A stretch of DNA of 32,000 nt from Microcystis aeruginosa NIES-843 (GCF_000010625.1 NC_010296.1:840001-872000); one strand, 5' to 3'; shown: positions 9,803-30,127, counted from the first letter of the stretch. Made by a program: numbers and translations. Notes: generated by a model not told the origin, from the sequence alone.

Positions 9803-9807
9803 GAATA

Positions 9808-11388
9808 GTGAGCGATCGCATTTTATCCCTAAAAGAACGTATTGGTCAGATGATAGTAGTCCGCGCTTCCGGCTATCTCTTTGACCAACAAATCCGCTAT
9901 CCCGTCTGGGAACCTGTCAACGCCACCCTCAAACACTGGTTAGAAACCCTCCACCTCGGTGGGGTGATTCTATTAGGAGGCAGCGCCGCCGAAATCGCTT
10001 TCCGTAGCCAACAATTACAAAGTTGGTCCGGCGATAATCCTCTCCTCATTGCCGCCGATATCGAGGAGGGAGTCGGCCAAAGGTTTTCTGGCGCCACTTG
10101 GTTCCCCCCCCCGATGGCTTTAGGAAAAATAGCCGAAAAAAGCTTGACAAAAGCCACAGAATATGCTAGGGAAATGGGAGCAATTACCGCTAAGGAAGCC
10201 CTAGCGATCGGGATTAACTGGATTTTAGCCCCAATTGTCGATGTGAACAATAATCCCGACAATCCTGTTATCAATATTCGTTCCTTCGCTGAAACTCCCG
10301 AAATCGTCGCTAATCTAGCTCAAGCTTTTATTTTAGGGGCGGATTCCTATCCAGTTTTGACCACGGCCAAACATTTTCCCGGCCACGGTGACACCAGCAA
10401 TGACTCCCATCTCGATCTTCCCATCATCAACCACGATCATCATCGCCTAGAAGCGCTCGAATTGCCGCCCTTTCAAGCAGCGATCGAGTCCGGGGTTGAT
10501 AGTATTATGTCAGGCCATCTGTTAATTCCCGCTTGGGATGCCGAATTTCCCGCCACTCTTTCCTCAAAAATTCTCGGGGAAAAACTGCGCCAAAATCTCG
10601 GTTTTCAGGGTTTAATCGTCACTGATGCCCTGATTATGGGAGGAGTAACCAAAATTGCCAGCGCTGCCGCCATAGCAGTGAGGGCGGTACAGGCGGGGGC
10701 CGATATACTGTTAATGCCACCCGATCCGATCGAAGCGATCGAAGCGGTGTATAGTGCCGTGCAAGCGGGTACAATTAGCGAAGCGAGAATTAATGATTCT
10801 TGGCAACGTATTCAACGAGCAAAAGAGAAATTGGGGCAAAGACAGCCATCCTTAGAATCCTTAAGCAGTTTAGCGGCACCGCAAGCTCTAGAGATTGTCA
10901 GGGATATTTTAAAAGATTCCCAAACAGTTAGCGCTAATTTACCGATTAAAGCCACTCAAGGCCGCAATTTAATCATTGTCGATGATTTGCTCAACTGTGA
11001 CTTTCTCGATCGCTCTTGTCCGGCGGTGACAATGCCCCGACAATGGGGTTATCAAACCCAAATAATCGACCGTAGCACCTTTAATCAGTCCCTCGTCTCC
11101 CCAGAAACGACTCTCCTACAAGTATTTATCCGTGGTAATCCTTTTCGGGGTAGTGCCGGATTAGGGGAGGAAACGAAAGCTATCTATCAAGCTTTGCTGA
11201 AAACTGGACAAATTCAAGCATTGATTATTTATGGTAGTCCCTACGTTTTCCAGTGGTTTCGTCAACAAAGCGCAGAAATTCCCTATCTTTTCAGCTACGG
11301 ACAACAACCAAGCGCCCAAAAAATTGCCCTAGAAACTATTTTTGAGTGGCCAACTAGCGGCGAAAATCGGACTGATACTTTTCTTTAA
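9808..11388 (+). CDS. Glycoside hydrolase family 3 protein (NagZ-like beta-N-acetylhexosaminidase/beta-glucosidase-related)
   Basis: 526 aa with the GH3 N-domain motifs NWILAPIVDV, KHFPGHGDTSNDSHLDLP and GLIVTDAL. Confidence 0.85.
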   Translation: MSDRILSLKERIGQMIVVRASGYLFDQQIRYPVWEPVNATLKHWLETLHLGGVILLGGSAAEIAFRSQQLQSWSGDNPLLIAADIEEGVGQRFSGATWFPPPMALGKIAEKSLTKATEYAREMGAITAKEALAIGINWILAPIVDVNNNPDNPVINIRSFAETPEIVANLAQAFILGADSYPVLTTAKHFPGHGDTSNDSHLDLPIINHDHHRLEALELPPFQAAIESGVDSIMSGHLLIPAWDAEFPATLSSKILGEKLRQNLGFQGLIVTDALIMGGVTKIASAAAIAVRAVQAGADILLMPPDPIEAIEAVYSAVQAGTISEARINDSWQRIQRAKEKLGQRQPSLESLSSLAAPQALEIVRDILKDSQTVSANLPIKATQGRNLIIVDDLLNCDFLDRSCPAVTMPRQWGYQTQIIDRSTFNQSLVSPETTLLQVFIRGNPFRGSAGLGEETKAIYQALLKTGQIQALIIYGSPYVFQWFRQQSAEIPYLFSYGQQPSAQKIALETIFEWPTSGENRTDTFL

Positions 11389-14572: not shown

Positions 14573-14766
14573 TAGGGCTGGCTGAATAATGGTAAAACCC
14601 TTGTTGGTTAAGACTTTTAGAGTTTTTGTAAATCAAAAAGTACCAGATATGGGAGTGATCGGGGGGAAAATTCAGGGACTTTTTCCCTGAAAATTAGGTA
14701 ATTGACCCCTTCAAAATCGGTAAAACCCTACACCCCACACCCCACACCCCATACCCTGCTCTAGGA
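14573..14766 (+). mobile_element. MITE copy of the same family as 8514, 3'-truncated
   Basis: Collinear with 8514-8700 (TAGGGCTGGCTGAATAA...AAATTCAGGGACTTTTTCCCTGAAAATT...heptamers) and diverges after CCCTGCTCTAGGA. Confidence 0.65.
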
Positions 14767-14797
14767 ATGCAAAGATTTATTAAAATGTAACATAAGA

Positions 14798-15021
14798 TAG
14801 GGCTGGCTGAATAATGGTAAAACCCTTTTAAAATAAGGCTTTTGACCTGTTAAAATCCGATGTTCATGCTGCGAAAATAGGATTAAGACCTTCAAAAACC
14901 TTGCATTATCCTTCTTTTAGTACAAAACTGGTACGAAAAAAGAGGACAACAAAGCCTGAAACGACCGGCTACTGACTCCTGACTCCTAACCCCACCAACA
15001 AACTTTTTGCCGCAAACCCTA
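14798..15021 (+). mobile_element. MITE variant with the same termini (TAGGGCTGGCTGAATAA ... TTTTTGCCGCAAACCCTA) but a different interior
   Basis: Both ends match the family. The internal sequence is unrelated to copy 8514. Confidence 0.6.
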
Positions 15022-15053
15022 AATAATCAGTCTTTAATAACCAGATTTAGTAT

Positions 15054-15148
15054 AAATCCACCGAAAAAGAAACCACAAAAATAGGATAAATTGCCTCTAA
15101 AAATACCATAAATGCCCCTTCAATCAATCTTGAGGGGGTTGATTTTTT
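15054..15148 (+). repeat. R repeat copy 1 (core form)
   Basis: AAATCCACCGAAAAAGAAACCACAAAAATAGGATAAATTGCCTCTAAAAATACCATAAATGCCCCTTCAATCAATCTTGAGGGGGTTGATTTTTT, that is hairpin CCCCTTCAA/TTGAGGGGG plus a T-run. Confidence 0.9.
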
Positions 15149-15330
15149 CCTTTCGCTTATTAAACAACTATCACCTCGTTGCTAGGGTCTCCCTGGCAAC
15201 GCATTTCCAGAGGTTCTACCTTGGAACGAGACAAAGCATTGATGATCACACAAGGTCGAGAAGAGCCAAATAGCCAATTTAGTGCCACAATTAGGAGTAG
15301 TTTATTTATTCTTCTCTCCCAGTTAAAAAT

Positions 15331-15546
15331 ATGCAAGTTAAAGAGCTAACCGTTGAAGAACTCAAACTCCTCATTCAAGAAACTGTTGCCGAAACTATCC
15401 AATCTATCTTACTCGATCCTGACCAAGACAAAGAAGTGAAACCTGAAGTTAAGCAACAAGTTCTTGACTCTCTAAGACGGACTGAAATAGGAGAAAAGGG
15501 GGTTTCAGCCGAGGAAGTAGCCAAAAAATTAGGATTAAACTGGTAA
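15331..15546 (+). CDS. Putative antitoxin partner of the RelE/ParE toxin
   Basis: 71-aa acidic ORF. Its stop overlaps the toxin start (TAATG at 15544-15548). Family not recognised with certainty. Confidence 0.6.
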   Translation: MQVKELTVEELKLLIQETVAETIQSILLDPDQDKEVKPEVKQQVLDSLRRTEIGEKGVSAEEVAKKLGLNW

Positions 15547-15806
15547 TGGCTTACTTTGTAGAATTTAGCTGCGAAGCAATCGCTGATTTAGAAGCACTCG
15601 CTCCTATCATTCAAGAGCGAATTTTGCGGAAAGTTCGCTGGTTGTCGGATAATTTTGAAAATGTTAGTCTTCAAGCTTTAAGTGCTAATTTGAGTGGTCT
15701 TTTCAAGCTTCGAGTCGGTGACTATAGAATTATCTATTCTTTTGCACCCGAAGCAGAACGCATTACCATCCACAAGGTTGGACATCGCCGAGATATCTAC
15801 AGTTGA
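15546..15806 (+). CDS. Type II toxin, RelE/ParE superfamily
   Basis: 86 aa. LFKLRVGDYRIIYSF...ITIHKVGHRRDIY is the RelE/ParE core signature. Confidence 0.85.
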   Translation: MAYFVEFSCEAIADLEALAPIIQERILRKVRWLSDNFENVSLQALSANLSGLFKLRVGDYRIIYSFAPEAERITIHKVGHRRDIYS

Positions 15807-16083
15807 TAAAATACTGTGTTTGAGAGTAGGTGGTTTCTTTGCTTAACATGATTTTTAGGGGAGACTTGTACAACCTTATTGTACAATTTCAAGCTCTTGA
15901 ACTCCCCAAAAACCCACAAATCTGAAGGGATAGGAATGCAAATATTTATTAAATTGTAGCTTTTGATACATTTGTGGGGGGGGAGTGTGTATTGTTCTAC
16001 TATCCGCCTTTGGTGTTGGGTTGGGTTGTTGCTTCACCTAGCTGCGAGGGGGCGAACACTTATGTACTGAGTAGCGAATGGTG

Positions 16084-16512
16084 ATGAAAAAAGGATTTTT
16101 CAGATGGCTACCAATTTTAGCCTTAACTATAGCTTTATCTTCTAACTTCTATTAGAATCACGATGATATTGCTCAAGCCCGTAATTTGAGACGTGTAAGC
16201 AATGGTTTTGCTTTCGAGATTCAGAATTGTAATAAAGACAATAATTCTGTAGTTTGTACTTTTATGGTTGCAAACTTAGGGGAAGTCAGAGATCTTTATT
16301 TTTATCCCCAAGACTCTATCATCATTGATTCTACCGGCAAGCAATTGAAGGGATCGGAGGGCCGTATTGGAGGAATAGGTCGTGATATGGTATGGGTAAG
16401 AGATATGCCTTCTAGAGTCCCCATTAACGGAAAAATTCTCTTTAAAGGAAATTTGCCTGGAAGAATCGTTTATCTGCGATTAGTAGGTAATTTCTCAGTT
16501 GAATGGAGGTAA
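16084..16512 (+). pseudogene. Small secreted protein gene with an in-frame TAG at codon 24
   Basis: ATG 16084 gives MKKGFFRWLPILALTIALSSNFY, then TAG (16153-16155), then NHDDIAQARNL... in the same frame as track ORF 16186-16512. A signal peptide is thus separated from its mature part by one stop. Confidence 0.5.
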
Positions 16513-16723
16513 TATATTACCTCGTTCTCAGGTTCTACCTGAAGATTTTTCCTGTGGCAGCAGCATTGAGATTCGTAGGTTGGGTTGACGCAAGGAAACC
16601 CAACAACTTCCTGGAATATTTTCACAATGTTTGTTGGGTTTCGCCTTTTGAGCCGATGGGTAATACCAGAGCAATAATGATAAGCTAAAACGCACTTAAA
16701 CCACCTAAAATAGAAATAGTAAC

Positions 16724-17899
16724 TTGAGAAAAATCCTACTTATGCCAGCCAAAGATTTCCTAGACTTAGAAGAAAAGAAAAACTTACAAAAAGCTCTTAA
16801 AGAAGAAGAAAGAGCAGAGGTTAGGGAAAGAATTTTAATGTTTCTCTTGCTAAACGACGGAAAAACTCAACGAGAAATAGCTGAGTTTATTGGCTGTTCA
16901 CTCAAAACAGTCGCCCCTTGGTGTGTTCATGGCGATCCTAACAATATAGAAAGTCTAGAAGATGGTAGAAAAAATGGAAATCATAAAAAAGCCACAGAGG
17001 AATATATTAATTTACTATTGAAAATAGTTGATGAAGACCCGAAGGAATTGGGATATGAATTCGGGAGATGGACAGCGGCAAGATTAGCAGAGCATCTAGA
17101 AAAGGAAACAGGAATTAAACTGAGTGGCTCGCAAGTGAGAAGAATATTGAGAAGAAAAAAGTATGTGTATATCTGGGCAAAATATAGTCTAGAAGATAAG
17201 CAAGACAAGAAATTAAGAAAAGCATTTAAAGAAAAATTAGATGAATATTTAAAGTTAGCGAAAGAAAAGCCAGAGTCAATCCAGGTATGGTTTTGGGACG
17301 GGGCTTTCAAGGTGGCGACGCAGGTTCGCCACACAGCCCCTCATGAGTGTGGATTTAGTTTGAGAGTAATAAGAAGGAGAGCTTGGACAAAAAAAGGAAA
17401 GCGAAAAAAAGTGAATGGGCAAAGAAAAAGAGGAAGGGTGAATGTGATGGGAGCCTTAAGATATAATGATAAAAAAAGAGTCTGTTTTATGATCAAAAAA
17501 GGAAATTCAGAAACTTTCCATGAACAATTAAAGAAACTTCATGAAGAGATTCGTCAAGAATGGATAAACTTGGGAAATCTGCCCGAAGATTTTCGAGAAA
17601 AGGGGCCGAAGATTATCATTATATTAGACAATGCTAGTTATCACAAAAAGAAAGATGTTATTGAGCAGGTGGAAAAAGAGTTGCCCAATATTAGGCTAGA
17701 GTTTTTACCAGCTTATAGTCCAGATTACAACCTAATAGAATTAGTGTGGCATTCCGCTAAAGAATACATAGCTAATCGAGAATTTGAAAATAAAGAAGAA
17801 CTGGAAAAAGTAGTCAATCAGCTTTTAAATGAAGGGGGATTGATTATTAAATGGAGTAGAAAACTTAAAAATAAGGGTAATGCTGTCAATGTAACTTAA
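16724..17899 (+). CDS. IS630-family DDE transposase carrying a 15-aa in-frame insertion
   Basis: HTH N-terminus, then WFWD[GAFKVATQVRHTAPH]ECGFSL, IIILDNASYHKK and YSPDYNLIELVW motifs. ATG at 16742 is an alternative start. Confidence 0.85.
   Translation: MRKILLMPAKDFLDLEEKKNLQKALKEEERAEVRERILMFLLLNDGKTQREIAEFIGCSLKTVAPWCVHGDPNNIESLEDGRKNGNHKKATEEYINLLLKIVDEDPKELGYEFGRWTAARLAEHLEKETGIKLSGSQVRRILRRKKYVYIWAKYSLEDKQDKKLRKAFKEKLDEYLKLAKEKPESIQVWFWDGAFKVATQVRHTAPHECGFSLRVIRRRAWTKKGKRKKVNGQRKRGRVNVMGALRYNDKKRVCFMIKKGNSETFHEQLKKLHEEIRQEWINLGNLPEDFREKGPKIIIILDNASYHKKKDVIEQVEKELPNIRLEFLPAYSPDYNLIELVWHSAKEYIANREFENKEELEKVVNQLLNEGGLIIKWSRKLKNKGNAVNVT
17300..17344 (+). other. 45-nt hairpin-forming in-frame insertion inside the transposase gene
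   Basis: GGGGCT..GTGGCGA-cgcaggt-TCGCCAC..AGCCCC splits the D-E of the first catalytic motif. The neighbouring IS630 transposase has an uninterrupted FIDESG. Confidence 0.6.
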
Positions 17900-17968
17900 A
17901 TGCGTAAAAGCTTAGCTCAACCCAACCTACGGCTCGATTAATTAATAAACTTATAGCAATTCTCTGAC

Positions 17969-18520
17969 TTATGAGGTACAGTAGCAACAGTGAGTAAACC
18001 AATTGCGAATATCTTTTTGAGTAACTTCTAACATAGCCAATTCAATCCCTTCTATTAAGTCTTTGTAAGTTCTCGCCTTCAGTTTTCTTAACGTCGCTTT
18101 CACTTTTGACCAAAAGTTTTCAATAGGAGAGAATTCGGGAGAATAAGGAGGTAAATAGATGAGTCTAGCTTTTTCTTGTTCGATTATTTCTCTGACCATT
18201 TCTCCGAGATGAATCTTGGCGTTATCCATGATCAGACAGTCTCCTTCTTTAATTTTTGGCAGCACTTCCTTTAGAATAAATCCTTCAAATGTTACCGCAT
18301 CCACTGCACCGTATATGTTGACTGATGCGACAACTTTTTCTAAGCTTATAGCACTAATTATTGAAATATTTCTCCCTCTTTTTTGTGGTTTTCTTCCCCG
18401 AGCTCTTCGGCCAATTAAGGCTCTAGCATAGAGTCTCAAAAGGGCTAAATTTACCCCCGATTCATCGATGAAAATTAGTTTTGATGCCTCAATTTCCCGA
18501 ACTTCTGACCAGTATTCCAC
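17969..18520 (-). CDS. IS630-family transposase orfB (DDE catalytic part)
   Basis: LIFIDESG, LIMDNAKIH and YSPEFSPIENFW motifs. The frame is open upstream to the A9 run in the -1 frame relative to orfA. Confidence 0.85.
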   Translation of the reverse strand: MEYWSEVREIEASKLIFIDESGVNLALLRLYARALIGRRARGRKPQKRGRNISIISAISLEKVVASVNIYGAVDAVTFEGFILKEVLPKIKEGDCLIMDNAKIHLGEMVREIIEQEKARLIYLPPYSPEFSPIENFWSKVKATLRKLKARTYKDLIEGIELAMLEVTQKDIRNWFTHCCYCTS

Positions 18521-18531
18521 TCTTTTTTGCT

Positions 18532-18918
18532 CTACCCTGTCACTTTCTTTTTCCGCCGCGTGTAGTGTTTTTTTTTGAAACTGTAATTGAGTTTTTGCGT
18601 AAGCCGCCCCAGGGTGGCTCTACTGACTTTCACCTGTGTCTTTTCATACAGTAAGTCCGATAATTCTTCGAGAGTTGCATCATTGTTAGCTTCGATGATT
18701 TCTATTAAAATTATCAGTTGTTCACTATTTAACTTGGTTGGCGGACTTCCCCCTTGCGGACGAGGACGGATATCTCCTGTTTCTTTATGTTGCTTCAATA
18801 ACTTCTGAATAAAGCTTTTAGCCACGTCAAATCTCTGGGCTAGTCCTCGAATGGAAATTTTTTCTTTCTTCCAGACATCGATAATTTTTTGGCGAAAATC
18901 TACGGAATAGGGTCTCAT
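18532..18918 (-). CDS. IS630-family transposase orfA (HTH part), ending just after an A9 slippery run
   Basis: 128 aa: MRPYSVDFRQKIIDVWKKEKISIRGLAQRF... The A-run is at 18568-18576. Confidence 0.85.
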   Translation of the reverse strand: MRPYSVDFRQKIIDVWKKEKISIRGLAQRFDVAKSFIQKLLKQHKETGDIRPRPQGGSPPTKLNSEQLIILIEIIEANNDATLEELSDLLYEKTQVKVSRATLGRLTQKLNYSFKKKHYTRRKKKVTG

Positions 18919-18996
18919 AGGAAGCTGGTAAGTTCTATTATTTGTCTATTTACTTTCTATTGTACCTCATAGCTCCAAGAATTGCTATATTCAGGA

Positions 18997-19359
18997 ATGA
19001 TAGTTATGGCAATCAGAATCAAACTTTGGGCAGATTATGGAAGTTACCCACTTTGGGGAGTAGATGAAATTGATAACATTGCTCCTGAAGAATTACCATT
19101 AAGTCAAGCAACCATTCAACGTTTAAACGCATGGCAGGATACTTACGATAAGACTTTAAATCAAGACTATCCACCTTTATCAGATTTTCCTAATCAGCAA
19201 GCTGAAATGGATTTTAAACAAGAAGGAATTAGTTTATGGAAACAGTTACGTCTTGAACTAGCCCCGGAGTATGAAGTTTTCTACCAAAATGAAGGTCAAT
19301 TGTTCAGACATCCTAAGGAAATAACCAAAAAATCTACAGTACAAAAAATAACAGTTTGA
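18997..19359 (+). CDS. Hypothetical protein
   Basis: The track ORF starts at TTG 18982 inside the IS end. The first ATGs are at 18997 and 19006. 118-121 aa, no family recognised. Its last 13 nt belong to the long form of the R repeat. Confidence 0.5.
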   Translation: MIVMAIRIKLWADYGSYPLWGVDEIDNIAPEELPLSQATIQRLNAWQDTYDKTLNQDYPPLSDFPNQQAEMDFKQEGISLWKQLRLELAPEYEVFYQNEGQLFRHPKEITKKSTVQKITV

Positions 19360-19515
19360 GTATCATCACCTTCGGCTCCGGCGCAGCTTCAACCCTCAAG
19401 CGCCAACTAAAACCATCCAAATCCACCGAAAAAGAAACCACAAAAGTAGGCTAAATTGCTTCTAAAAATACCATAAATGCCCCTTCAATCAATCTTGAGG
19501 GGGTTTTGTTTTTTT
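19349..19515 (+). repeat. R repeat copy 2 (long form)
   Basis: Starts at ATAACAGTTTGAG and shares a ~75-nt 5' extension with copy 5. Core hairpin at 19480-19503 followed by TTTTGTTTTTTT. Confidence 0.9.
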
Positions 19516-19517
19516 AT

Positions 19518-20740
19518 ATAGAACTCTTGCAAATTAATTATATGTTATAATGATGGCTTAACTAATTTTCCCCAAAAAATTAGTTAACCAGTACATTCGT
19601 CCTGAATGAAAACTTGAAGTTTAACTTTTAACTCAAAACTCTTTAGATATGCTTTAATTTGGTTATCAAAACCTCTTTATTTAAGCGGCACAAACTATCT
19701 CAATTTTTATAATTGAGAATAAATTCTCCTTGACTTGATTAATCTTTAGGCAACTTTTAAGAAGCTGCTATACCTATCCCTAACTCACCGTTATAAATAG
19801 CCGCCAACAAGTTAACTCTTAAACTATATCTTCGACGACGATTCCGATATTTACAGGATAAGATTTTAAAGATTTTGAGTTTCCTATTTATAGGTTCAAT
19901 GATAATCCTTTCTTTGGCTAAAGCCTTGTTATACTCTTTTTCTAACTCTGTTAATTTTCTATTTTTCGATTTCTTTTTCGGTGTATAACTATTACTATGG
20001 TATGCAGCTATTCCCTGATAACCACTGTCTTCTATGCTGGTAGTTAAAGGATGAAAACGAACTCGACTTTTTTTAAATAAACTAAAATCATGACCTCTAC
20101 CTTTCCCACAAAAGACACAGATAATTTCCTCGGTAGTTTGATCAGCTACTAATTGGGATTTTAAAGTATGATAACCTCTTTTACCCCCCAAAAAATCTTT
20201 CTGTTTCTTTTTGGGGCGTTCAATGGGAGTTTCCGTTACATCCATTACCGTTACGACCGGTATCTCTGCTTGATTTAGTAGAGCTTTTTTTCCTTTTAAA
20301 CGGAAGTTTCCCGATTGTAAAAGCATTTTTTCCGTCTTATTTACAATCCGACATATAGTTGATTCTGATAGTTCCCAGCTTGTACCAATGTGAAAATATG
20401 TTCTATATTCTCGCCAATATTCTAACGTTACTAAAACTTGTTCTTCTATAGATAGTTTAGGTTTCGGTCCCCTTTTAGATGGTGAATTAGAGTCGGCTTC
20501 AACACTTTTTACTGATTCTACCATCTTTCTATAGGTTTGTTTATACACACCGAAACGGCGTTTGAATTGTTCATCTGATAAGTTTTGATAATCCATAATT
20601 TTGCTAATAAACATAGCAAAATTATAGATGATTTCCTGACCTAAGATCACATTTTATTCTTTTTTCCACTTCAATCTAAGAATTGAGAAAAAAGCAAAAC
20701 CCTATATTATACCATAAAAAAATTATGCAAGAGGTCTTAT
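19518..20740 (-). mobile_element. IS5-like insertion sequence (~1.2 kb), boundaries approximate
   Basis: Inverted ends are (ATA)GAACTCTTGCA at 19518-19531 and TGCAAGAGGTC(TTAT) at 20726-20740. A possible TTAT duplication lies at 19514-19517 and 20737-20740. One transposase ORF. Confidence 0.6.
19757..20596 (-). CDS. DDE transposase (IS5-family-like, HTH plus DDE)
   Basis: Preferred ATG is at 20596 (MDYQNLSDEQFKRRFGV). Motifs MDVTE, HTLKSQ, EDSGYQG and RIIIEPINRKLKIF. The track start GTG 20650 adds 18 hydrophobic residues. Confidence 0.7.
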   Translation of the reverse strand: MDYQNLSDEQFKRRFGVYKQTYRKMVESVKSVEADSNSPSKRGPKPKLSIEEQVLVTLEYWREYRTYFHIGTSWELSESTICRIVNKTEKMLLQSGNFRLKGKKALLNQAEIPVVTVMDVTETPIERPKKKQKDFLGGKRGYHTLKSQLVADQTTEEIICVFCGKGRGHDFSLFKKSRVRFHPLTTSIEDSGYQGIAAYHSNSYTPKKKSKNRKLTELEKEYNKALAKERIIIEPINRKLKIFKILSCKYRNRRRRYSLRVNLLAAIYNGELGIGIAAS

Positions 20741-20758
20741 CTCTTTTTTGGCAATAGA

Positions 20759-20767
20759 TGCTATAAT
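20759..20767 (+). promoter_or_regulatory. Extended -10 promoter element TGcTATAAT
   Basis: Exact TGnTATAAT lies 34 nt upstream of the GTG at 20801. Confidence 0.4.
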
Positions 20768-20800
20768 GAAAGGCCACTCTTGAAGATTGCTTGATCGATC

Positions 20801-21037
20801 GTGGACTTTGAGATTATCAGCGATATTACGAATATCGAGATTATTGCCACAGGAACAGGAATTCGTAATCGGGAACGGTTGCAAAAACAGTATGGCAAAG
20901 GTAAATGGAGAAAATTAAAGGGCATAGCCCAAGTTCAGCTTCCCAATGGTATAGTAAGGTTAGCCGAAGTCCATTGGTATGAAGCTCATGGCATCGGCAA
21001 AAAAGAATTTAAGCTCAAGCTACCGTTTCTCGATTGA
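20801..21037 (+). CDS. Uncharacterised small protein, first gene of a two-gene module
   Basis: 78 aa, basic: ...RLQKQYGKGKWRKLKGIAQVQLPNGIVRLAEVHWYEAHGIGKKEFKLK. No named family recalled. Confidence 0.6.
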   Translation: MDFEIISDITNIEIIATGTGIRNRERLQKQYGKGKWRKLKGIAQVQLPNGIVRLAEVHWYEAHGIGKKEFKLKLPFLD

Positions 21038-21039
21038 CC

Positions 21040-21279
21040 ATGAACATAGAGTCATCTCCAACAAATAAGTTCGCAGTTTGTCTCAATAATGAAGGCTACG
21101 AAGCTTCACTAGAGGTGGGCAAAATATACCGCGTTATCCCTGATGAGACAACAGAAATAAACAGTCTAATTCGGGTTATTGATGAAAGTGGTGAAGATTA
21201 CGCTTTTTCTGTGAATCGGTTTCATGCTATTGAGTTACCAAAGCCAATAGAAGAAGCTTTATTATCAGTTGCCAACTAA
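21040..21279 (+). CDS. Uncharacterised small acidic protein, second gene of the module
   Basis: ATG lies 3 nt after the upstream stop (TTG 21034 would overlap it). ...YRVIPDETTEINSLIRVIDESGEDYAFSVNRFHAIELP. The stop codon lies in R repeat copy 3. Confidence 0.6.
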   Translation: MNIESSPTNKFAVCLNNEGYEASLEVGKIYRVIPDETTEINSLIRVIDESGEDYAFSVNRFHAIELPKPIEEALLSVAN

Positions 21280-21381
21280 AACCCCCTAAATCCACTGAAA
21301 AAGAAACCACAAAAGTAGGCTAAATTGCCTCTAAAAATACCATCGATGTCCCTTCATTCAATCTTGAGAGGGTTTATTTTT
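21273..21381 (+). repeat. R repeat copy 3
   Basis: CAACTAAAACCCCCTAAATCCACTGAAAAAGAAACCAC...CATCGATGTCCCTTCATTCAATCTTGAGAGGGTTTATTTTT. The 3' half is identical to copy 5. Confidence 0.9.
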
Positions 21382-21398
21382 GGCATCTATTAATACTT

Positions 21399-21752
21399 CT
21401 AAAAATTGTCAAACTTATTAATGATGTCTTGAATTTGCTGCGCTGTGATGTCTGTTTGGTTAGATTTGGCATAGATGAGGAGCATCAAAACACAACCATT
21501 GTCTTTAAGTTGATAGATAACACGATAGCCGCTACTTTTGCCCTTTTGAATATCGCTGTTTTTGAGGCGAACTTTAAAGACAGTGTAGCCTATTCCTGGT
21601 ATTTGATCGCCGATGAATTTGCCTATCTGAAGGTCATCAATTAGAGGTTGTAGGTCAGTACGAATGCTCCGATAGCGTTTGGCGAGGGTGCGAAGTCGAT
21701 CCTTGAATTCATCAGAGAAAAGGAGCTTAATAGAGGGAATTTCTTCAGTCAT
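21399..21752 (-). CDS. Type II toxin, RelE/ParE superfamily (copy 1)
   Basis: 117 aa. FKVRLKNSDIQKGKSSGYRVIYQL...LMLLIYAKSNQTDI signature. Overlaps the upstream antitoxin gene by 8 nt. Confidence 0.8.
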   Translation of the reverse strand: MTEEIPSIKLLFSDEFKDRLRTLAKRYRSIRTDLQPLIDDLQIGKFIGDQIPGIGYTVFKVRLKNSDIQKGKSSGYRVIYQLKDNGCVLMLLIYAKSNQTDITAQQIQDIINKFDNF

Positions 21753-22083
21753 CTATGCCATCCCAGAGTTCAGAGATGGGATGTACTTTGCCTTCTTTAG
21801 CTTGCTGAAGAGAAATACAAAGACTGGTGAGGATGAGTTCTTTTGGTTCGTCGTCAGGGTCAGTGGGTGGAGTGAGGATATTACGCGATACTAGCAATTG
21901 GTAGAAATCATCGAGTGCCATTCCCGTTAGTTCGGCTGCTTGTTCAAATTGAAGGCGTTGCTGCTGATAGAGCATGATAGCGATTTCCGTGAGCATTTGA
22001 GCTTCAGTCATTTGTACTGTTTGCAGAAGTTTAGAGGGAAGGATGAGGTTCATAGAGGTTTCATTAAGTGGCAGTAACTTCAT
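21745..22083 (-). CDS. UPF0175-like antitoxin (copy 1)
   Basis: Preferred ATG is at 22083 (MKLLPLNE...). The track start at 22110 lies inside the R repeat. EAQMLTEIAIMLYQQQRLQFEQAAELTGMALDDFYQLL resembles UPF0175. Confidence 0.7.
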   Translation of the reverse strand: MKLLPLNETSMNLILPSKLLQTVQMTEAQMLTEIAIMLYQQQRLQFEQAAELTGMALDDFYQLLVSRNILTPPTDPDDEPKELILTSLCISLQQAKEGKVHPISELWDGIDD

Positions 22084-22090
22084 TGTATCG

Positions 22091-22181
22091 CCATGAAAAG
22101 GAAACCACAAAAGTAGGCTAAATTGTTTCTAAAAATACCATAAATACCCCTTCAATCAATCTTGAAGGGGTTTATTTTTTT
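22091..22181 (+). repeat. R repeat copy 4 (short form)
   Basis: CCATGAAAAGGAAACCACAAAAGTAGGCTAAATTGTTTCTAAAAATACCATAAATACCCCTTCAATCAATCTTGAAGGGGTTTATTTTTTT. The brnA stop (22172-22174) lies in the T-run. Confidence 0.9.
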
Positions 22182-22474
22182 GCCCGTGTTTCTACATATT
22201 CTCGCAGGGCGCGATTAATACTGGTCTGATACCCCTCCTCTTGTGTGGCCTGGGTTTTGAACCAGTCTATCAGGTCAGCATCAAGGCTTAGGGTGATCTG
22301 CTGTTTGAGCGGACGATAAAATACACCACGCTGCGCCCTGCTCCAATCTCCCGTAGCCTCCGGGATCAGATCTGTGCGGATAAGCTCTTGTGACGTGGCT
22401 AGAGCGTCAATTTCAGCCTGTATCTCTGGCGGTACTGGATTAGAATCTCCCTTCTTCATAAGCCCTCCTTTCAT
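22172..22474 (-). CDS. brnA: BrnA-type antitoxin
   Basis: C-terminal ITLSLDADLIDWFKTQATQEEGYQTSINRALREYV matches the BrnA/RHH type. Downstream of and overlapping brnT. ATG 22459 is an alternative start. Confidence 0.8.
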   Translation of the reverse strand: MKGGLMKKGDSNPVPPEIQAEIDALATSQELIRTDLIPEATGDWSRAQRGVFYRPLKQQITLSLDADLIDWFKTQATQEEGYQTSINRALREYVETRAKK

Positions 22475-22730
22475 GGGCTGTTGCCCTGCGTGCGCTAATA
22501 ATTCGTCCCGTTTCCTCTCCTGTCACTGAATCAGACTCCGGCCAAGTATGCACCACAAACACAGTCAATTTACCGATCAGTCCGATAGTCTGCCAGCGTT
22601 CTTCCTCTGGGTATGGATCAGGACGGCTGACAGCGAGAGGATCGGCAAAAACATATTGAGCGGCTTCAAAGCTCAAGCCGTGATCGCGCTTGTTTGTCCG
22701 ATTTTTGTTGTCGTCCCATGTCCACTTCAA
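22440..22730 (-). CDS. brnT: BrnT-type ribonuclease toxin
   Basis: 96 aa. WTWDDNKNRTNKRDHGLSFEAAQYVFADPLAV...RIISARRATAHERRAYEE is the BrnT signature. Toxin-first gene order is as described for BrnTA. Confidence 0.85.
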   Translation of the reverse strand: MKWTWDDNKNRTNKRDHGLSFEAAQYVFADPLAVSRPDPYPEEERWQTIGLIGKLTVFVVHTWPESDSVTGEETGRIISARRATAHERRAYEEGRF

Positions 22731-22915
22731 TTCTACTCTCCAAATGTAGCTATATTATGGTTACTACATTAATTTTTATCAACATTGTATTTGCGCTAAC
22801 GCAATCGCAATAAAATTTACCCCTGTCGGGAGCATAACATTATCCAGATATAATGCCAGTATCACTACCGATTTAGCAGCAAGAGCAAGCTAAACAAATT
22901 AGTCATCATCAAATG

Positions 22916-23095
22916 ATAACAGTTTGAGCGGTATGTGTTAATTATCATCCCTTTCGGCTTCGGCGCAGCTTCAAACCTCAAAAGCAAACTAAAACCCTCC
23001 CAATCTACCGAAAAAGAAACCACAAAAATAGGCTAAATTGTTTAGTAAAAATACCATCGATGTCCCTTCATTCAATCTTGAGAGGGTTTATTTTT
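22916..23095 (+). repeat. R repeat copy 5 (long form)
   Basis: Starts at ATAACAGTTTGAG. The 5' part is homologous to copy 2. From 23047 onward it is identical to copy 3. Confidence 0.9.
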
Positions 23096-23112
23096 GGCAT
23101 CTATTAATACTT

Positions 23113-23466
23113 CTAAAAATTGTCAAACTTATTAATGATGTCTTGAATTTGCTGCGCTGTGATGTCTGTTTGGTCAGATTTGGCATAGATGAGGAGCATC
23201 AAAACACAACCATTGTCTTTAAGTTGATAGATAACACGATAGCCGCTACTTTTGCCCTTTTGAATATCGCTGTTTTTGAGGCGAACTTTAAAGACAGTGT
23301 AGCCTATTCCTGGTATTTGATCGCCGATGAATTTGCCTATCTGAAGGTCATCAATTAGAGGTTGTAGGTCAGTACGAATGCTCCGATAGCGTTTGGCGAG
23401 GGTGCGAAGTCGATCCTTGAATTCATCAGAGAAAAGGAGCTTAATAGAGGGAATTTCTTCAGTCAT
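23113..23466 (-). CDS. Type II toxin, RelE/ParE superfamily (copy 2)
   Basis: Identical to 21399-21752 except for one nucleotide (N98D). Confidence 0.8.
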   Translation of the reverse strand: MTEEIPSIKLLFSDEFKDRLRTLAKRYRSIRTDLQPLIDDLQIGKFIGDQIPGIGYTVFKVRLKNSDIQKGKSSGYRVIYQLKDNGCVLMLLIYAKSDQTDITAQQIQDIINKFDNF

Positions 23467-23797
23467 CTATGCCATCCCAGAGTTCAGAGATGGGATGTAC
23501 TTTGCCTTCTTTAGCTTGCTGAAGAGAAATACAAAGACTGGTGAGGATGAGTTCTTTTGGTTCGTCGTCAGGGTCAGTGGGTGGAGTGAGGATATTACGC
23601 GATACTAGCAATTGGTAGAAATCATCGAGTGCCATTCCCGTTAGTTCGGCTGCTTGTTCAAATTGAAGGCGTTGCTGCTGATAAAGCATGACAGCGATTT
23701 CCGTGAGCATTTGAGCTTCAGTCATTTGTACTGTTTGCAGAAGTTTAGAGGGAAGGATGAGGTTCATAGAGGTTTCATTAAGTGGCAGTAACTTCAT
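23459..23797 (-). CDS. UPF0175-like antitoxin (copy 2)
   Basis: Identical to 21745-22083 except for two nucleotides (one silent, one I to V). ATG at 23797. Confidence 0.7.
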   Translation of the reverse strand: MKLLPLNETSMNLILPSKLLQTVQMTEAQMLTEIAVMLYQQQRLQFEQAAELTGMALDDFYQLLVSRNILTPPTDPDDEPKELILTSLCISLQQAKEGKVHPISELWDGIDD

Positions 23798-23804
23798 TGT
23801 ATCG

Positions 23805-23866
23805 CCATGAAAAGGAAACCACAAAAGTAGGCTAAATTGCCTCTAAAAATACCATAAATGCCCCTT
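23805..23866 (+). repeat. R repeat copy 6 (short form, truncated within the hairpin)
   Basis: CCATGAAAAGGAAACCACAAAAGTAGGCTAAATTGCCTCTAAAAATACCATAAATGCCCCTTAA, then unrelated sequence. Confidence 0.85.
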
Positions 23867-23975
23867 AATTCAGTTAGTTTAGAGTGCGAAACGCAGGAAC
23901 AGCAGCCAGCCGTCGAGAAATGATGTCAAATCCCGTCATACTTTATCTTTATTTCTGACCGGCTGCCTGGACAAA

Positions 23976-25538
23976 TCAGAAAGTAAAAGTCGTTCGGATA
24001 GTACCGATAACTAAGGTGGAATTGTTGTTATTTGAGTTGGGAGAAGTAATCACGATTACCCCCGGAGTAAGGGCAATATTATCGGTGAGTTTCCACTCAT
24101 AAAATCCTTCGATATGAAAGGAAGTATCGGGATCATTAGTGGAACTACCATCATTTAATCTAATACTAGAACTAGACACCCAGGGCTGCATACCAACAAT
24201 AATACCAGCGGTATTTCCTTCCTTAAATAAATCAGGAAAAGCCAAAGTTACCGCCCAATTCCAGATATCTAAATCCCCGCGTTCTAGTTGTCCATCTAAG
24301 GTGCTAAGGGTGATAGCTTTTGTGTAACCCCCCCAACCACCGAGGACAAAACCATCGACAATTCGCCAACTAAATTGTAAACCCAAACTATTATTAATTG
24401 TCGGGACAGCCTCCCCGAATAGTTCTTCGGTGAAAAATTGGAAATTCGAGCGCTGACTTCCCGTCCCCGTGTCTAATTGGTTATAACCATGAAAGTAGGA
24501 TAAAGCAATGCCAAAATTATCGTTTGGAACATAACCCAGCTGCCCTAGGGCAGTATAGGAGCCGTTAAATAAACCCCCTCCCGGGTTAGGATCGTTAGCA
24601 TCTCCGGCAAGATAACCGGCACTGAACTGGAAAGACCCATAATTACCCTGTAAACCGAGTCCAGTTTGTCCGGGGGCAAAATAAAGGGGATTGCGGGTAC
24701 CAAAAGCGGAAAGTGCCCCACTAGCACCATCTCCATCCAAAAAGTTGAGGGTATTGGTAAAGTCATCTTTAGCACCTCCCGTCGCTTCTAACCAGAGGTG
24801 GATATTTTCCGTTACGGGGAAACTGTAGTTTAAAACTTCTAGCAATAAATCATTGCCGTCGGGTTGGGTAAAGGCTAAGGTACTTTGAAAAGTTCCGGTG
24901 GTATCGGCTAAATCGGCAATATTTCCCGTTGCTAGACGGGTATAGAGTAAATCTTTGCCTGTGAAGCTAGTATTTAATTCTAAACGGGCCCGATAACCAA
25001 AAGCTGGTACTTGGGGAATCCCTTCATCACCGTTTTTTTCTCCTGTGGCTACCCCATATAATGCCATCACCACTTCCCCAGTTAATTTAGTAGTGGTGGA
25101 AAATTGATTATTTTCCAGAAAAGCGACTCGATTTTCTAAGTTATTAACCCTAGCCCCTAAGGCCGCTAATTCTGTCTCGAATTCCCTGACTAATCGCTTG
25201 ATTCTGTCTAGATCTTCTTTTAATACCGCTACTCCTTCTTGAATCAATCTTTCTAGGGTATTTAAGCAGGAATTCAACCCCGCGGCAAATTCCCAACGAG
25301 TTAAAGCGCGTTCACCGCGAAAAGTACGGTCAGGATAACCTACTATACAACCATACCTCTCCACGAGACTTCTTAAGGCCTCAAAAGCCCAGGCGGTGGG
25401 AGAAACATCCCGCAATTGATTGACACTTGTTACCTGTGCCATGGGGTTACTAGAGAGGTTTTCGAGACTATTAGCCAGTACAGGACTAGAAAAACCCAGT
25501 AATATCACTGCTGTTAGGAAATTTTGCTTGATTTTCAT
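23976..25538 (-). CDS. Outer-membrane porin with N-terminal SLH domain and OprB-type beta-barrel
   Basis: Preferred ATG is at 25538 (MKIKQNFLTAVILLGFSSPVLA signal peptide). SLH motif WAFEALRSLVERYGCIVGYPDRTFRG, a coiled coil, and an aromatic-terminated barrel (...RTTFTF). Confidence 0.88.
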   Translation of the reverse strand: MKIKQNFLTAVILLGFSSPVLANSLENLSSNPMAQVTSVNQLRDVSPTAWAFEALRSLVERYGCIVGYPDRTFRGERALTRWEFAAGLNSCLNTLERLIQEGVAVLKEDLDRIKRLVREFETELAALGARVNNLENRVAFLENNQFSTTTKLTGEVVMALYGVATGEKNGDEGIPQVPAFGYRARLELNTSFTGKDLLYTRLATGNIADLADTTGTFQSTLAFTQPDGNDLLLEVLNYSFPVTENIHLWLEATGGAKDDFTNTLNFLDGDGASGALSAFGTRNPLYFAPGQTGLGLQGNYGSFQFSAGYLAGDANDPNPGGGLFNGSYTALGQLGYVPNDNFGIALSYFHGYNQLDTGTGSQRSNFQFFTEELFGEAVPTINNSLGLQFSWRIVDGFVLGGWGGYTKAITLSTLDGQLERGDLDIWNWAVTLAFPDLFKEGNTAGIIVGMQPWVSSSSIRLNDGSSTNDPDTSFHIEGFYEWKLTDNIALTPGVIVITSPNSNNNNSTLVIGTIRTTFTF

Positions 25539-25711
25539 TGCTGTCTCCCACACCTACAAGAATGATTATTGTTCTCAGTATAATCAGGTTAGCAAACTTT
25601 TTTCAGTCTGGCACTATTGCAAATATTTTTCAAATATTACTCCAGATAAAATCTGAATTGCCTAGCATTTATTGGTTAACATAAATCTTAAATGATAATA
25701 AAAGCAATAAG

Positions 25712-25929
25712 TAGGGTTTGCGGCAAAAAGTTTTTCCTGGGGGCAGGGTGTGGGGTGTAGGGTGTAGGGTGTAGGGTTTTAGCGATTTTGAGGGGGTCAA
25801 TTACCTAATTTTCAGGGAAAAAGTCCCGGAATTTTCCACCCGATCACTCCGGGATCTGGCACTTTTTGGTTTCCAAAAAGTCTAAAAGTCTTAGCCAACA
25901 AGGTTTTTAGATTTATTCAGCAGACCCTA
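25712..25929 (-). mobile_element. MITE copy (218 bp, reverse orientation), abutting the IS at 25932
   Basis: TAGGGTTTGCGGCAAAAAG...GGTGTAG heptamers...TTTATTCAGCAGACCCTA is the reverse complement of the 8514 type. Confidence 0.7.
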
Positions 25930-25931
25930 AG

Positions 25932-27628
25932 TAGGGTTTGCTGAAAAAGTCATTGAAAAGTACAGGTCTCTTAATCAATGATTTCACTTAGCTACAAGCA
26001 TAAGCTTTAGTTGTTGATTAATTTTTAAATTATAACTTATCCTAATCATTGACCGAGAAAAAGTGCTGTTTTTCCATTTCAGACATAAAAAAGCCCAAAA
26101 AACCTGCCTCAACAGGTTAGAAAGATTCATGACTAAAAAAGTAATAGCAATCGCTGAAAAGGAAGTATGAGGAAGTTTAGCCATCACTTTACCTAAGCTA
26201 AATCTTCTTTTCCCCTGTCCAAATTTGCCCTCTATACAATTCCGAATCCTCTCATCATCAGTAGCTTGTTTCTTTTGTTCTTTACTAACATTTTTGGCTG
26301 GTCTTCCTAATGGGGGACCACTGATTCTGATTCCCCTTTCTTTACACCAAGCTCGGTTTTCTCTGGTTCGATAAATTTTGTCCACATGAACTGATTCTGG
26401 ATAGTATCCTGTATAGTCATAATAAGCTTCTATTTGTGCTTTTAAATCTCCTGATTCATTAAAGTTATCCCAACTAATTCGGTCTAAAAATATGTAACCA
26501 TCTATACAGCTTGCTGAGAATTTAGCCCCAAATTCTACGGGTTTTCCAGCTTTTCCTCTGACTATCGGACGGATGTGGGGTTGAGTTAAGCTGACAATTC
26601 TGTCTTCAATACTCTGTTTGTTATTTTGGTACATCCAGAGTTGTTGACGATAAACTTCTGTGACTACTAACAACAGTTTATAGTCTCTTTTTTTCAAGCT
26701 TTGTAGAGAGGCTCCTTCTGCTAAAAGTTGTTCAATATGGTCGAGATTTCTTTTCAGATATTGCAGCTGTTTTTTCAGGGCTTTTCGTCTTTGTTTGACG
26801 GTAGGTTTTCTTTTTTTCGCTACTTCTAAATAACTTTTTCTGGCTAGAAGACGATAGGTTCTCGGTTTTTGAACAAGTTTTCCTTTTCAAGTTTCCTAGA
26901 GAATATCAATAATTTTTTCGGTTTGTTTTCTTCCTTGATTTAACAGGTTTAAATCCGTAGGATAACTAATATCTGCGGGCGCACAACTGGCATCTAAAAT
27001 TAATTTACCTCGATTTTCTGGTTGACTTTGGGTTTCGCTCTCTAACTTTTTTTCGGTGTTTTCTTCTTCTTTTATTTCTCTCGAATTTTTGACCATAAAG
27101 CGATTCACTTTATTAATTAGTTCCCGAGTGATTCTTTCTCGAAAGTGAACCAACATTGACGCTTCAAACCGGGGTTCATTGCTGTAGGATGAAAACCCCA
27201 AGAAGTATTGTAAATAAGGATTTTCTTTGATTTGTTCTACCGTTTCTCTATCGCTTGTTCCTAATTTTTCTTTAATAATTAATGCTCCGAGTGCTGTCCT
27301 GAATGTTTTGGCGGGTGTGCCCATTTCTTCTGAAAAAAGTGATGCGTATTCCGCTTCAAATTCTGACCAGGGAATGAGGTTGGCCATAATTACCCAACGA
27401 TTGTCTTGGGATAATTTCCCCTCAAAGGGCAGCTCGAAGTTTTCTGGTGGGGTTGAGGGTAACTCGCTTTTACGGTACATTAGCACTAATTAGAGAAGAT
27501 GCAAGGGTGATGCAAGGGTGATGCAAGGGTTTTAAGAGATTCTAGCAGATTTAAGTGCATTTGGGAAGCTCTCAATCAAGCTAAAAGCCCTTTCCTGTAA
27601 GGTTTTTAGATTTATTCAGCCAACCCTA
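25932..27628 (-). mobile_element. IS1182/IS5-superfamily insertion sequence (1697 bp), inactivated
   Basis: Ends TAGGGTTTGCTGAAAAAG... and ...TTTAGATTTATTCAGCCAACCCTA match the ends of the MITE family. It contains one ~500-codon transposase frame. Confidence 0.75.
25984..27486 (-). pseudogene. IS1182/IS5-type transposase with two in-frame stop codons
   Basis: Track ORFs 26896-27486 and 25984-26697 are in the same frame. The junction reads ...IIDIL-TAG-E-T-TGA-KGKLVQKPRTYRLLARKSYLEV... (TAG 26896-26898, TGA 26887-26889). N-terminal DUF772-like domain and C-terminal DDE domain. Confidence 0.8.
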
Positions 27629-28835: not shown

Positions 28836-29108
28836 ATGAAGATTCCCACTGCTGATACTCCCCTCTATAATCATCCCTTACCGGCGATCGAAGCATGGCT
28901 AGTTAAATTAGGTTGTCGGAAAAATACCGAGAATATCCACTGTTGGATCGTCGAAAAACCAACATGGAAAGCGGAAATCTGCCTCGATATCGAAGAAATC
29001 ACCGTTCGTTACTTTCGGGCAGCCAATGACGGCAGTGACATCAATCGCGCTTTTAAATACTCCCTTAGTCGCCAAGATATAGAATCGGCGGTTTTTTCTG
29101 GTCCCTAA
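28836..29108 (+). CDS. DUF3143-family protein
   Basis: 90 aa. PLYNHPLPAIEAWL...W..EKPTWKAEICLDIEEITVRY matches my recollection of this conserved cyanobacterial/plastid-lineage family. Confidence 0.65.
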   Translation: MKIPTADTPLYNHPLPAIEAWLVKLGCRKNTENIHCWIVEKPTWKAEICLDIEEITVRYFRAANDGSDINRAFKYSLSRQDIESAVFSGP

Positions 29109-29117
29109 TCATTAGTC

Positions 29118-30015: not shown

Positions 30016-30127
30016 CACACCCTACACCCTACCCCGTTAAGACAGCGCCGGAGTTGGCGGCAGGGAGAGCTAGTCCGAGCATTTGTACTAAATTTTCCAA
30101 GACACGCTGTCAATCCAGTACACTTGT

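Follow-up and report, generated by a model that had tools for sequence, protein, structure and literature searches.

What kind of repeat punctuates a run of small toxin-antitoxin (TA) modules in the chromosome of Microcystis aeruginosa NIES-843, and how did the modules come to lie between its copies? The question arises from a stretch of 32,000 nucleotides (nt) (NC_010296.1:840001-872000, hereafter the window), in which a repeat that we call R recurs six times in one orientation, with modules on either strand between the copies. A preliminary description made from the sequence alone took R for an undescribed element and offered three options: a hotspot of homologous recombination, a portable terminator or promoter unit, or the site of a recombinase encoded elsewhere. 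Our analysis indicates that R is the 3' end of genes for proteins with a PEP-CTERM sorting domain, comprising the last codons, the stop codon, the 3' untranslated region (3'UTR) and a predicted terminator. We propose, with a probability of roughly 0.6, that homologous recombination between copies of this gene end reshuffles the cassettes that lie between them.

R is the 3' end of PEP-CTERM genes

A 24-nt core, AAACCACAAAANTAGGNTAAATTG, matches the window six times, always on the + strand (at 15070, 19435, 21304, 22102, 23017 and 23816), and was not matched in 100 dinucleotide-preserving shuffles. A repeat finder assigned the same six places to one family, and their alignment gave a conserved block of ~85 nt, so the six co-oriented copies first reported are real. 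The copies (R1 to R6) were placed, and other loci searched, with a profile built from full-length relatives; this placement, given in the feature list below, agrees to within a few bases with the coordinates of the preliminary description. Alignment also confirmed the 5' extension, ATAACAGTTTGAG..., that had been noticed in R2 and R5.

Outside the window we collected loci by exact match to the core, taking one genome per species, which gave 47 loci. Nearly all are from Microcystis; also present were two metagenome-assembled genomes (MAGs) of Crocosphaera, two small MAG contigs bearing the labels of other taxa, and one "unicellular cyanobacterium SU3". In most of the 47 loci another ~60 nt on the 5' side of the core are conserved, and these read in frame as ...VPEPSSILSLLALGTLGAASTLKRKLKPSQSTEKETTKVG, with the TAA of GTAGGCTAAATTG as the stop codon. 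The encoded tail is ...LGAASTLKRKLKPSxSTEKETTKVG (stop), followed by ~25 nt of A-rich 3'UTR and then by the predicted intrinsic terminator. Translation of 59 pattern-matched copies gave a PEP motif, a hydrophobic stretch, KRK and this tail, and of the 53 copies found in other loci, 25 stand at the end of open frames of some 170-420 amino acids (aa) whose N-terminal parts are unrelated. The tails of intact relatives scored 24.9 and 24.5 bits with TIGR02595 (PEP_CTERM), for which the cutoff is 16, and conservation by codon position was coding-like (0.57 at third positions vs 0.76 at first and 0.90 at second). A check for intact genes ending in R without PEP-CTERM features found that this was not the case. 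It is the in-frame PEP-CTERM tail, the frames of ~170-420 aa, the TIGR02595 scores and the codon-position bias that identify R. The repeat itself had been correctly seen in the preliminary description, and the coding sequence inside it, brought out by the in-frame translation, had been overlooked; nor is R an undescribed element: it is a PEP-CTERM gene end, and about half of its relatives in other genomes close intact genes.

None of the six window copies is such an intact gene. All are 5'-truncated orphans, with open frames of 12, 45, 29, 17, 38 and 17 codons and no PEP motif, and the R2 peptide had no match in NCBIfam. As 62 PEP-CTERM gene clusters have been reported in one complete Microcystis genome (PMC7498433; for the PEP-CTERM/exosortase system see Haft et al. 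2006, as cited there), R amounts to a dispersed block of ~100-200 bp of shared sequence.

At its 3' end R has a G+C-rich hairpin of 10 bp with a T-run behind it, and the two together were scored as an intrinsic terminator on the + strand. The terminator scan called R1, R2 and R4, and the end has the G+C-rich stem of at least 5 pairs followed by a T-run that marks a predicted terminator. On folding, the terminal hairpin was the only structure and the only palindrome, the remainder being A-rich and unstructured. In R6 this hairpin is decayed (CCCCTTAATTCAGTTAGTTTAGAGTG), and the copy had at first been taken to be cut inside it. The orthologous terminal copies of loci L007, L009, L026 and L028 carry the same decayed hairpin, and those of the metagenome loci L048-L052 end at the same profile position as R6, which shows that R6 is not cut.

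A gene end of this kind could be kept mainly as a bidirectional terminator, possibly with an outward promoter on the minus strand, recombination being a side effect. Such a role would suit the canonical + strand terminator, the hairpin of R4, which has a terminator-like score on the - strand too, and the conservation of the 3'UTR and hairpin, which at 0.69-0.75 is about that of coding positions; the minus-strand modules B, C, D and E, moreover, begin ~12-220 nt from the next R. However, the promoter scan called no sigma-70 site in R, and we reject such a promoter. The motif TGGTATTTT, extended -10-like and seen by eye only on the minus strand of most R copies, is present whatever the neighbours and is therefore not discriminating, and the stem lacks support from covariation. 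Regulation is also compatible with recombination rather than exclusive of it, and as the main reason for the persistence of R we regard it as very unlikely.

Several other identities were tried and rejected. Rfam gave nothing at the gathering score for R, with chance-level matches only (E of at least 1.2), and no tRNA or transfer-messenger RNA (tmRNA) gene was found in the window, ruling out a known RNA family, a small RNA, or a tRNA/tmRNA 3' end serving as an integration target. A miniature inverted-repeat transposable element, or another repeat derived from an insertion sequence (IS), was ruled out by termini that do not pair and by a left end that varies with module type; target-site duplications were not looked for. 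Nor is the core a specially conserved protein-binding site: copies outside the search pattern vary in it, and its apparent invariance arose because the pattern selected for it.

Arrays of single modules between co-oriented gene ends

With the full gene-end profile we found 102 R copies in the 47 loci and the window. Two or more copies occur in 26 of these 48 sequences, on mixed strands in none, and all 54 pairs of neighbouring copies are co-oriented. The intervals between neighbours have a median of 705 bp (interquartile range 551-757 bp); 35 of the 54 contain one recognised type II TA pair, 11 a small unknown pair or open reading frame (ORF) and 5 short remnants, while 3 are long and reach the next PEP-CTERM gene. 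The TA families in the intervals are PIN_3, PIN, DUF3368/UPF0175, RelE-like/UPF0175, BrnT/BrnA, MazF, MNT/HepT, ParE/Unstab_antitox, Phd/YoeB and ParE. Orientation-fixed R arrays around single small modules are a general pattern in Microcystis, and the repeat-delimited arrangement of small selfish modules proposed for the window is borne out by the profile scan, and by the tabulation of orientation, spacing and content, that had been suggested for checking it.

Several arrays (e.g. L020, L022, L024, L026 and L052) start with an intact PEP-CTERM gene, and among 30 evaluable full-length gene ends a TA module comes directly next in 22 and an unknown pair in 2. In both Crocosphaera MAGs a convergent PIN/antitoxin pair lies directly after R; in SU3 only an antitoxin-like ORF was seen beside it. 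One of the Crocosphaera loci, L005, additionally carries a homologue of a 125-aa ORF of the window (6733-7077 with R oriented +, 86.7% nt identity), a few hundred bp downstream of the PEP-CTERM gene end and the PIN/antitoxin module, which suggests an exchange between genera or a mis-binned contig.

The arrays take the form [PEP-CTERM gene-R]-[TA]-[R]-[TA]-[R]..., all R copies co-oriented and each module having a 5'-truncated R on its right. The left junction of that R is specific to the module type and ranges from profile column 48 to 163: 48-49 in most loci for the 125-aa ORF, 59-61 for PIN_3, 62-75 for BrnTA, 87 for a VapBC-like pair, 98 for an uncharacterised pair A (present in 7 loci, with 92 in L022), 124-127 for RelE/UPF0175 and 160-163 for DUF3368. 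By inspection, R variants also group by module type rather than by genome, so homogenisation within a genome, and with it concerted evolution of R there, is not strong.

Variable 5' truncation combined with a 3' end that is constant at the terminator U-tract, where an mRNA would end, is also what a retro-element might leave. Orphan R copies would then be 5'-truncated cDNAs of PEP-CTERM mRNA 3' ends, made by a Microcystis reverse transcriptase and inserted beside TA modules, and the window does hold what looks like a group II intron lacking an ORF. Yet the truncation points number only about ten, and each belongs to, and is inherited with, one module type; in some lineages the similarity runs 5-15 nt past the T-run. 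The constant 3' end is equally explained by paralogue similarity ending there, and neither the proximity of TA modules nor the co-orientation of R would follow from reverse transcription, which makes this origin extremely unlikely.

Proposed recombination between R copies

The window array lies between R1 and an iron-uptake porin gene, and its parts are these (cassette letters are used throughout; profile columns are those of the gene-end profile):

15052-15153, + strand: R1, orphan PEP-CTERM 3' end, profile columns 113-216, with the last 12 codons, stop TAA at 15087, 3'UTR and terminator
15331-15806, + strand: cassette H, a 71-aa putative antitoxin (15331-15546) and a ParE-family toxin (15546-15806; PF05016 ParE_toxin, E=1.1e-9)
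15821-16682: degraded stretch, with a second dispersed repeat (15821-16059) and a 108-aa ORF without assigned function (16186-16512)
16724-18918: two IS630-family elements, 16724-17899 (+ strand) and a frameshifted copy at 17969-18918 (- strand), with DDE_3 and helix-turn-helix (HTH) matches
18982-19359, + strand: cassette G, the 125-aa ORF, without assigned function
19356-19519, + strand: R2, orphan PEP-CTERM 3' end, profile columns 49-217, 45-codon open frame, no PEP motif
~19520-20737, - strand: IS4/IS5-like element, transposase ORF 19757-20650 with PF13359 (DDE_Tnp_4), PF13613 and PF01609 (DDE_Tnp_1)
20801-21279, + strand: cassette A, an overlapping pair of 78 aa and 81 aa, no family match
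21271-21389, + strand: R3, profile columns 98-218, left junction specific to cassette A, identical to R5 from 21332 rightwards
21399-22110, - strand: cassette B copy 1, a RelE-like toxin (21399-21752; PF06296, PF05016 weak) and a UPF0175 antitoxin (21745-22083/22110; PF03683, E=1.8e-12)
22095-22189, + strand: R4, profile columns 124-220, left junction specific to cassette B
22172-22730, - strand: cassette E, BrnA (22172-22474; PF14384) and BrnT (22440-22730; PF04365)
22951-23103, + strand: R5, profile columns 62-218, extension from 22916, a mosaic with an E-type left, an L026-type middle and an R3-type right
23113-23824, - strand: cassette B copy 2, a recent copy of copy 1
23809-23884, + strand: R6, profile columns 124-199, a B-type left junction joined to the locus-resident terminal R with its decayed hairpin
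23976-25553, - strand: iron-uptake porin gene (NF033921, E=5.7e-169), the conserved right-hand anchor of the array

Pfam agrees with the module content given in the preliminary description (ParE, two DDE_3 elements of IS630 type, the overlapping pair, two RelE-like/UPF0175 pairs and BrnT/BrnA), in which the third IS, at ~19520-20737, had been overlooked.

The right flank with the porin gene shares ~95.6% nt identity with L007, L009, L026 and L028, and L048-L052 came from searching metagenomes for the terminal junction. Ten strains and metagenome contigs share this porin-flanked locus, and their cassette series differ (Rt is the terminal copy; R.R is a short R remnant with a second R close behind):

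window: ...G-R-[IS]A-R-B-R-E-R-B-Rt, porin
L007: G-R-B-R-C-Rt, porin
L009: ...R.R-C-Rt, porin
L026: PEPgene-R-C-R-B-Rt, porin
L028: PEPgene-R-A-R-D-R.R-C-Rt, porin
L048: ...R-B-Rt, porin
L049: R-E-R-C-Rt, porin
L050: ...E-R-C-Rt, porin
L051: R-(PBECR1-like+G)-R-B-R-E-R-C-Rt, porin
L052: PEPgene-R-D-R.R-C-Rt, porin

The differences consist of whole cassettes gained, lost, duplicated or reordered, and they are bounded by R copies, so the strain comparison proposed in the preliminary description did place the breakpoints at R. The same kind of variation is seen between L020 and L022 at another chromosomal locus, which lies downstream of a putative asnS (a housekeeping gene, read by eye), and cassettes A, B, E and G are common to both loci.

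Traces of individual exchanges are found in the window. The two copies of cassette B (21332-22125 and 23046-23839) have 3 differences in ~794 nt and are 99.6% identical, whereas they differ by ~4-6% from the copies of other strains. Their near-identity starts in R3/R5 at column ~152 and ends in R4/R6 at column ~147, the pattern expected if a module and one hybrid R had been copied via a single exchange inside R. R5 is itself a mosaic (alignment A3), its left part matching the BrnTA-linked R of L036, its middle the R preceding the RelE module in L026, and its right R3 of the window. The switches fall near column 80-86 and near column 152, implying exchanges at two or more different positions, and the right-hand part that R3 and R5 share accompanies cassette B on their right. 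In the R that is linked to BrnTA, the final nucleotides of the 125-aa ORF are still present (ATAACAGTTTGAG), so this R derives from the junction of a 125-aa-ORF cassette. Exact tracts shared between window copies reach 58 nt and measure at least 25 nt in most pairs; tracts of 25-58 nt are about as long as RecA-dependent exchange in Escherichia coli minimally requires. Among the three options first offered for R, a hotspot of homologous recombination fits best, given the crossovers of R5 at two positions.

The arrays might instead be passive relics, that is, tandem PEP-CTERM genes that decayed after TA modules had landed between them, the gene bodies being deleted and R left with no continuing role. 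In L011 and L040 there are indeed PEP-CTERM genes that stand in tandem or alternate with TA modules, all orphans are gene ends that lack their 5' part, as they would after deletion, and cassettes differ by ~4-6% between strains, similar to their flanks. Decay alone, however, does not account for the reordering and duplication of modules. Among the ten orthologous arrays the cassettes vary in kind, number and order, B-C and C-B both being represented; the same module with the same junction sits at two chromosomal loci; the 99.6% identical copy is bounded inside R; and R5 is a mosaic. We consider it unlikely that the arrays are relics and nothing else.

A second alternative keeps the reshuffling and replaces its agent: an unlinked recombinase or nuclease would recognise the stop-codon core (GAAAAAGAAACCACAAAAGTAGGCTAAATTG) or the hairpin, and insert or excise TA cassettes in the manner of integrons or Xer modules. 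Uniformly sized single-module cassettes in a strictly fixed orientation would be expected of it, modules lie within ~0-20 nt of the terminator T-run in at least 8 module types, and both boundaries of the recent cassette B copy fall a little to the 3' side of the core. In addition, genes for putative endonucleases of the Uma2 family (PF05685) stand at the far end of three R arrays, ~100-220 bp from the last R (with R oriented +, at 6699-7373 in L010, 7129-7704 in L017 and 1547-2287 in L041). Against such a system, neither attC box (RYYYAAC ... GTTRRRY) occurs on either strand of the six copies with their 30-nt flanks, as the preliminary description had noted, and the terminator hairpin is the only palindrome, which rules out integron attC sites. 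Also in agreement with that description, Pfam scans of window ORFs of 110 aa or more, and of the 9 nearest large flanking ORF clusters tested, brought up neither a tyrosine nor a serine recombinase; what these encode are housekeeping proteins, DDE transposases and Uma2-family proteins. The arrays in the loci examined showed no integrase. Crossovers at two different positions in R5, and left junctions that vary by module type from column 48 to 163, do not fit a fixed site; the core looks invariant in part because the search pattern selected for it, unselected copies being variable; and the two boundaries would coincide in any single-crossover event, whatever its mechanism. A site-specific system therefore seems quite improbable to us. 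The same low odds attach to its most far-reaching version, in which R arrays are a gene-capture platform of the Chroococcales, integron-like without an integron, with the PEP-CTERM gene end, through its stop-codon core and terminator hairpin, as the attachment site of an unlinked recombinase or nuclease of a kind not yet recognised; if it were true, a gene-capture enzyme would load and reorder TA and immunity cassettes behind PEP-CTERM genes. Carriage of R by phages or plasmids was likewise considered and found no match in viral contigs, INPHARED phages or the PLSDB plasmid collection.

Under homologous recombination, which we prefer, R would act as portable homology for the general recombination machinery. 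An exchange between direct copies would delete, duplicate or loop out a module together with one hybrid R, whether by unequal crossing-over, by loop-out of a circle and Campbell-type re-entry at any R, or by replacement after DNA uptake. Re-entry at another R, or replacement after uptake, would move modules within and between arrays, and because each of these routes yields direct orientation automatically, the fixed orientation of R would need no further cause. Each module type probably received its truncated R once, through an illegitimate junction, as the BrnTA-linked R with its piece of the 125-aa ORF illustrates, and then spread by homology. The terminator in R probably insulates neighbouring modules, and the addictive nature of TA pairs may account for their persistence and accumulation.

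Several points weigh against this explanation. It does not explain how each module first acquired its truncated R, and neither excision nor circular intermediates were observed. Hairpin variants are not strictly tied to the right-hand module; cassette D occurs with two hairpin types, which needs exchanges very near the T-run or two separate origins. Few recombination events are resolved, so crossovers may yet favour one site. The sample takes in core-matching ends, with diverged and possibly cassette-free PEP-CTERM ends falling outside it, and its stretches of ~8 kb cut many arrays at their edges and leave unlinked recombinases out of view. Finally, in a user-specified stem (indels in the loop led RNAalifold to misplace it) 84% of cells were paired over 23 diverse copies, but compensatory changes numbered 0 and there was no excess relative to shuffles, which leaves canonical features as the basis of the terminator call. 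Taken as a whole, the earlier interpretation held for the cassette arrays, the R-bounded turnover between strains, the lack of attC sites and, among the ORFs tested, the lack of tyrosine or serine recombinase genes, and failed for the undescribed element and the cut sixth copy.

Other features of the window and comparison with known systems

The left part of the array differs between loci in further ways. The equivalent of R1 in L016 is nearly full length (profile columns 22-215) and is followed by the same ParE cassette, and where the window has its degraded stretch (15821-16682), L016 and L010 have additional TA modules that it lacks. The second dispersed repeat of that stretch (15821-16059) occurs twice in L016 (952-1130 and 2691-2870), flanking a Phd/YoeB module and an unknown pair that are both missing from the window, which suggests a deletion between its two copies and an R-like role for another repeat family. 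The truncated left end of R1 adjoins a short repeat ending AAAAAGTTTTTCC (here in reverse complement, ...AAACTTTTTGCCGCAAACCC; 14930-15025, also at 2031-2082 / 25725-25776). A similar short repeat adjoins an R in L024, and this repeat may be the cause of the R1 truncation. Both IS630 elements are missing from L010, L016 and L018. The IS4/IS5-like element, which has imperfect terminal inverted repeats and sits exactly between the T-run of R2 and cassette A, is missing from L010, L018 and L020. In L008, L020 and L051 the 125-aa ORF is preceded by a weakly PBECR1-like ORF that the window lacks, and the BrnA stop codon of cassette E lies inside the T-run of R4.

To the right of the porin gene, an insertion sequence of ~1.9 kb (25714-27626), with a DDE_Tnp_1_2 ORF (25984-26697) and a DUF772 ORF (26896-27486), is missing from L007, L026 and L028, where its flanks are contiguous. 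An insertion of ~980 bp (29131-30112), missing from the orthologous regions of L009, L015 and L028, has an Rfam match to group II intron domain V/VI (29231-29308, - strand) and no ORF of at least 110 aa, and looks like the ORF-less group II intron mentioned above. A dispersed repeat of ~180 bp (families D5-D7) occurs at 8514-8690, 14573-14843, 25709-25937 and 29068-29244, as well as in L013, L024 and L026, and tandem arrays of 7-nt units (GATAACT / GTAAACA types) at 9720-9831 and 31087-31419. A type IV pilus assembly cluster fills 3646-8497, with PilM, PilN and the secretin identified by Pfam and one gene between them without a match. In other cyanobacteria the type IV pilus apparatus serves DNA uptake, which is relevant to cassette replacement by transformation.

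Microcystis forms blooms, and its genome is highly plastic and very rich in TA genes; for many of its TA modules there is now a structural rule: they stand directly behind PEP-CTERM terminators, with orphan gene ends between them. Recombination between 100-200-bp remnants of a family of ~60 genes offers a plausible route by which such modules are gained, lost, copied and moved, and by which a cassette-array organisation could arise without integron machinery. By extension, a recombination scaffold could form from any large family of paralogues that have a 3' end in common. R arrays may also link the turnover of surface-protein genes, a class of genes that has been associated with colony formation, to the dynamics of selfish modules. 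In practice, the hypervariability of R arrays at conserved loci makes them strain markers, and orphan R copies will appear in automated annotation as partial PEP-CTERM pseudogenes.

No account of PEP-CTERM gene ends as boundaries of TA cassettes turned up in our literature search, and despite their resemblance to four known systems the R arrays fail the defining tests of each: integrons, pdif modules, polymorphic-toxin orphan arrays and tandem integrative elements. The Xer-dependent pdif modules of Acinetobacter plasmids are small and discrete, many carry TA pairs including BrnT/BrnA, and they occur in varied contexts bounded by short recombination sites, the 28-bp XerC/XerD sites in alternating orientation. 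R is 60-200 bp long, chromosomal and not palindromic, and is direct in every locus, with no pdif-type alternation (no formal scan for XerC/XerD half-sites was made). The orphan toxin-immunity arrays behind cdiA, rhs and mafB likewise lie downstream of a parent gene, each module having a fragment of the gene family at which homologous recombination is possible. There, however, an alternative C-terminal toxin domain follows the fragment, and the parent protein is altered by recombination, whereas in R arrays the fragment is the extreme 3' end with its terminator, and the modules are independent operons. In tandem integrative and cis-mobilisable elements at gene 3' ends, direct repeats of the gene end flank each unit, as in R arrays; the R units measure only 0.5-0.8 kb, their boundaries vary by module type, and no integrase was seen in the loci examined.

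Integron arrays, notably sedentary chromosomal ones with TA cassettes (PMC3856429, PMC8876359), share with R arrays one repeat per small cassette, co-orientation of the repeats, frequent TA content and variation between strains. R arrays differ in having no intI in the tested ORFs and no attC structure or boxes, in cassettes that are two-gene operons on either strand, in crossovers at variable positions and in a repeat that is a gene fragment. As for PEP-CTERM sorting-domain genes (TIGR02595), R encodes the C-terminal portion, whose intact relatives have the PEP motif, a transmembrane stretch and a basic cluster, whereas the six window copies lack the PEP motif and a usable ORF, and R also spans the 3'UTR and terminator. 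Within the species, the one repeat-fenced TA module of Microcystis that the literature yielded, a ParE/ParD module of M. aeruginosa PCC 7806, stands beside the orthocaspase gene MaOC1, fenced by identical 152-bp direct repeats with the inverted repeat GGGCGAAGCATTCGGA (PMC7935541). Its repeat is a different one, not described as derived from PEP-CTERM genes, and it is a single module rather than an array; like the R cassettes, it is a Microcystis TA pair held between direct repeats and kept as a unit in a few strains.

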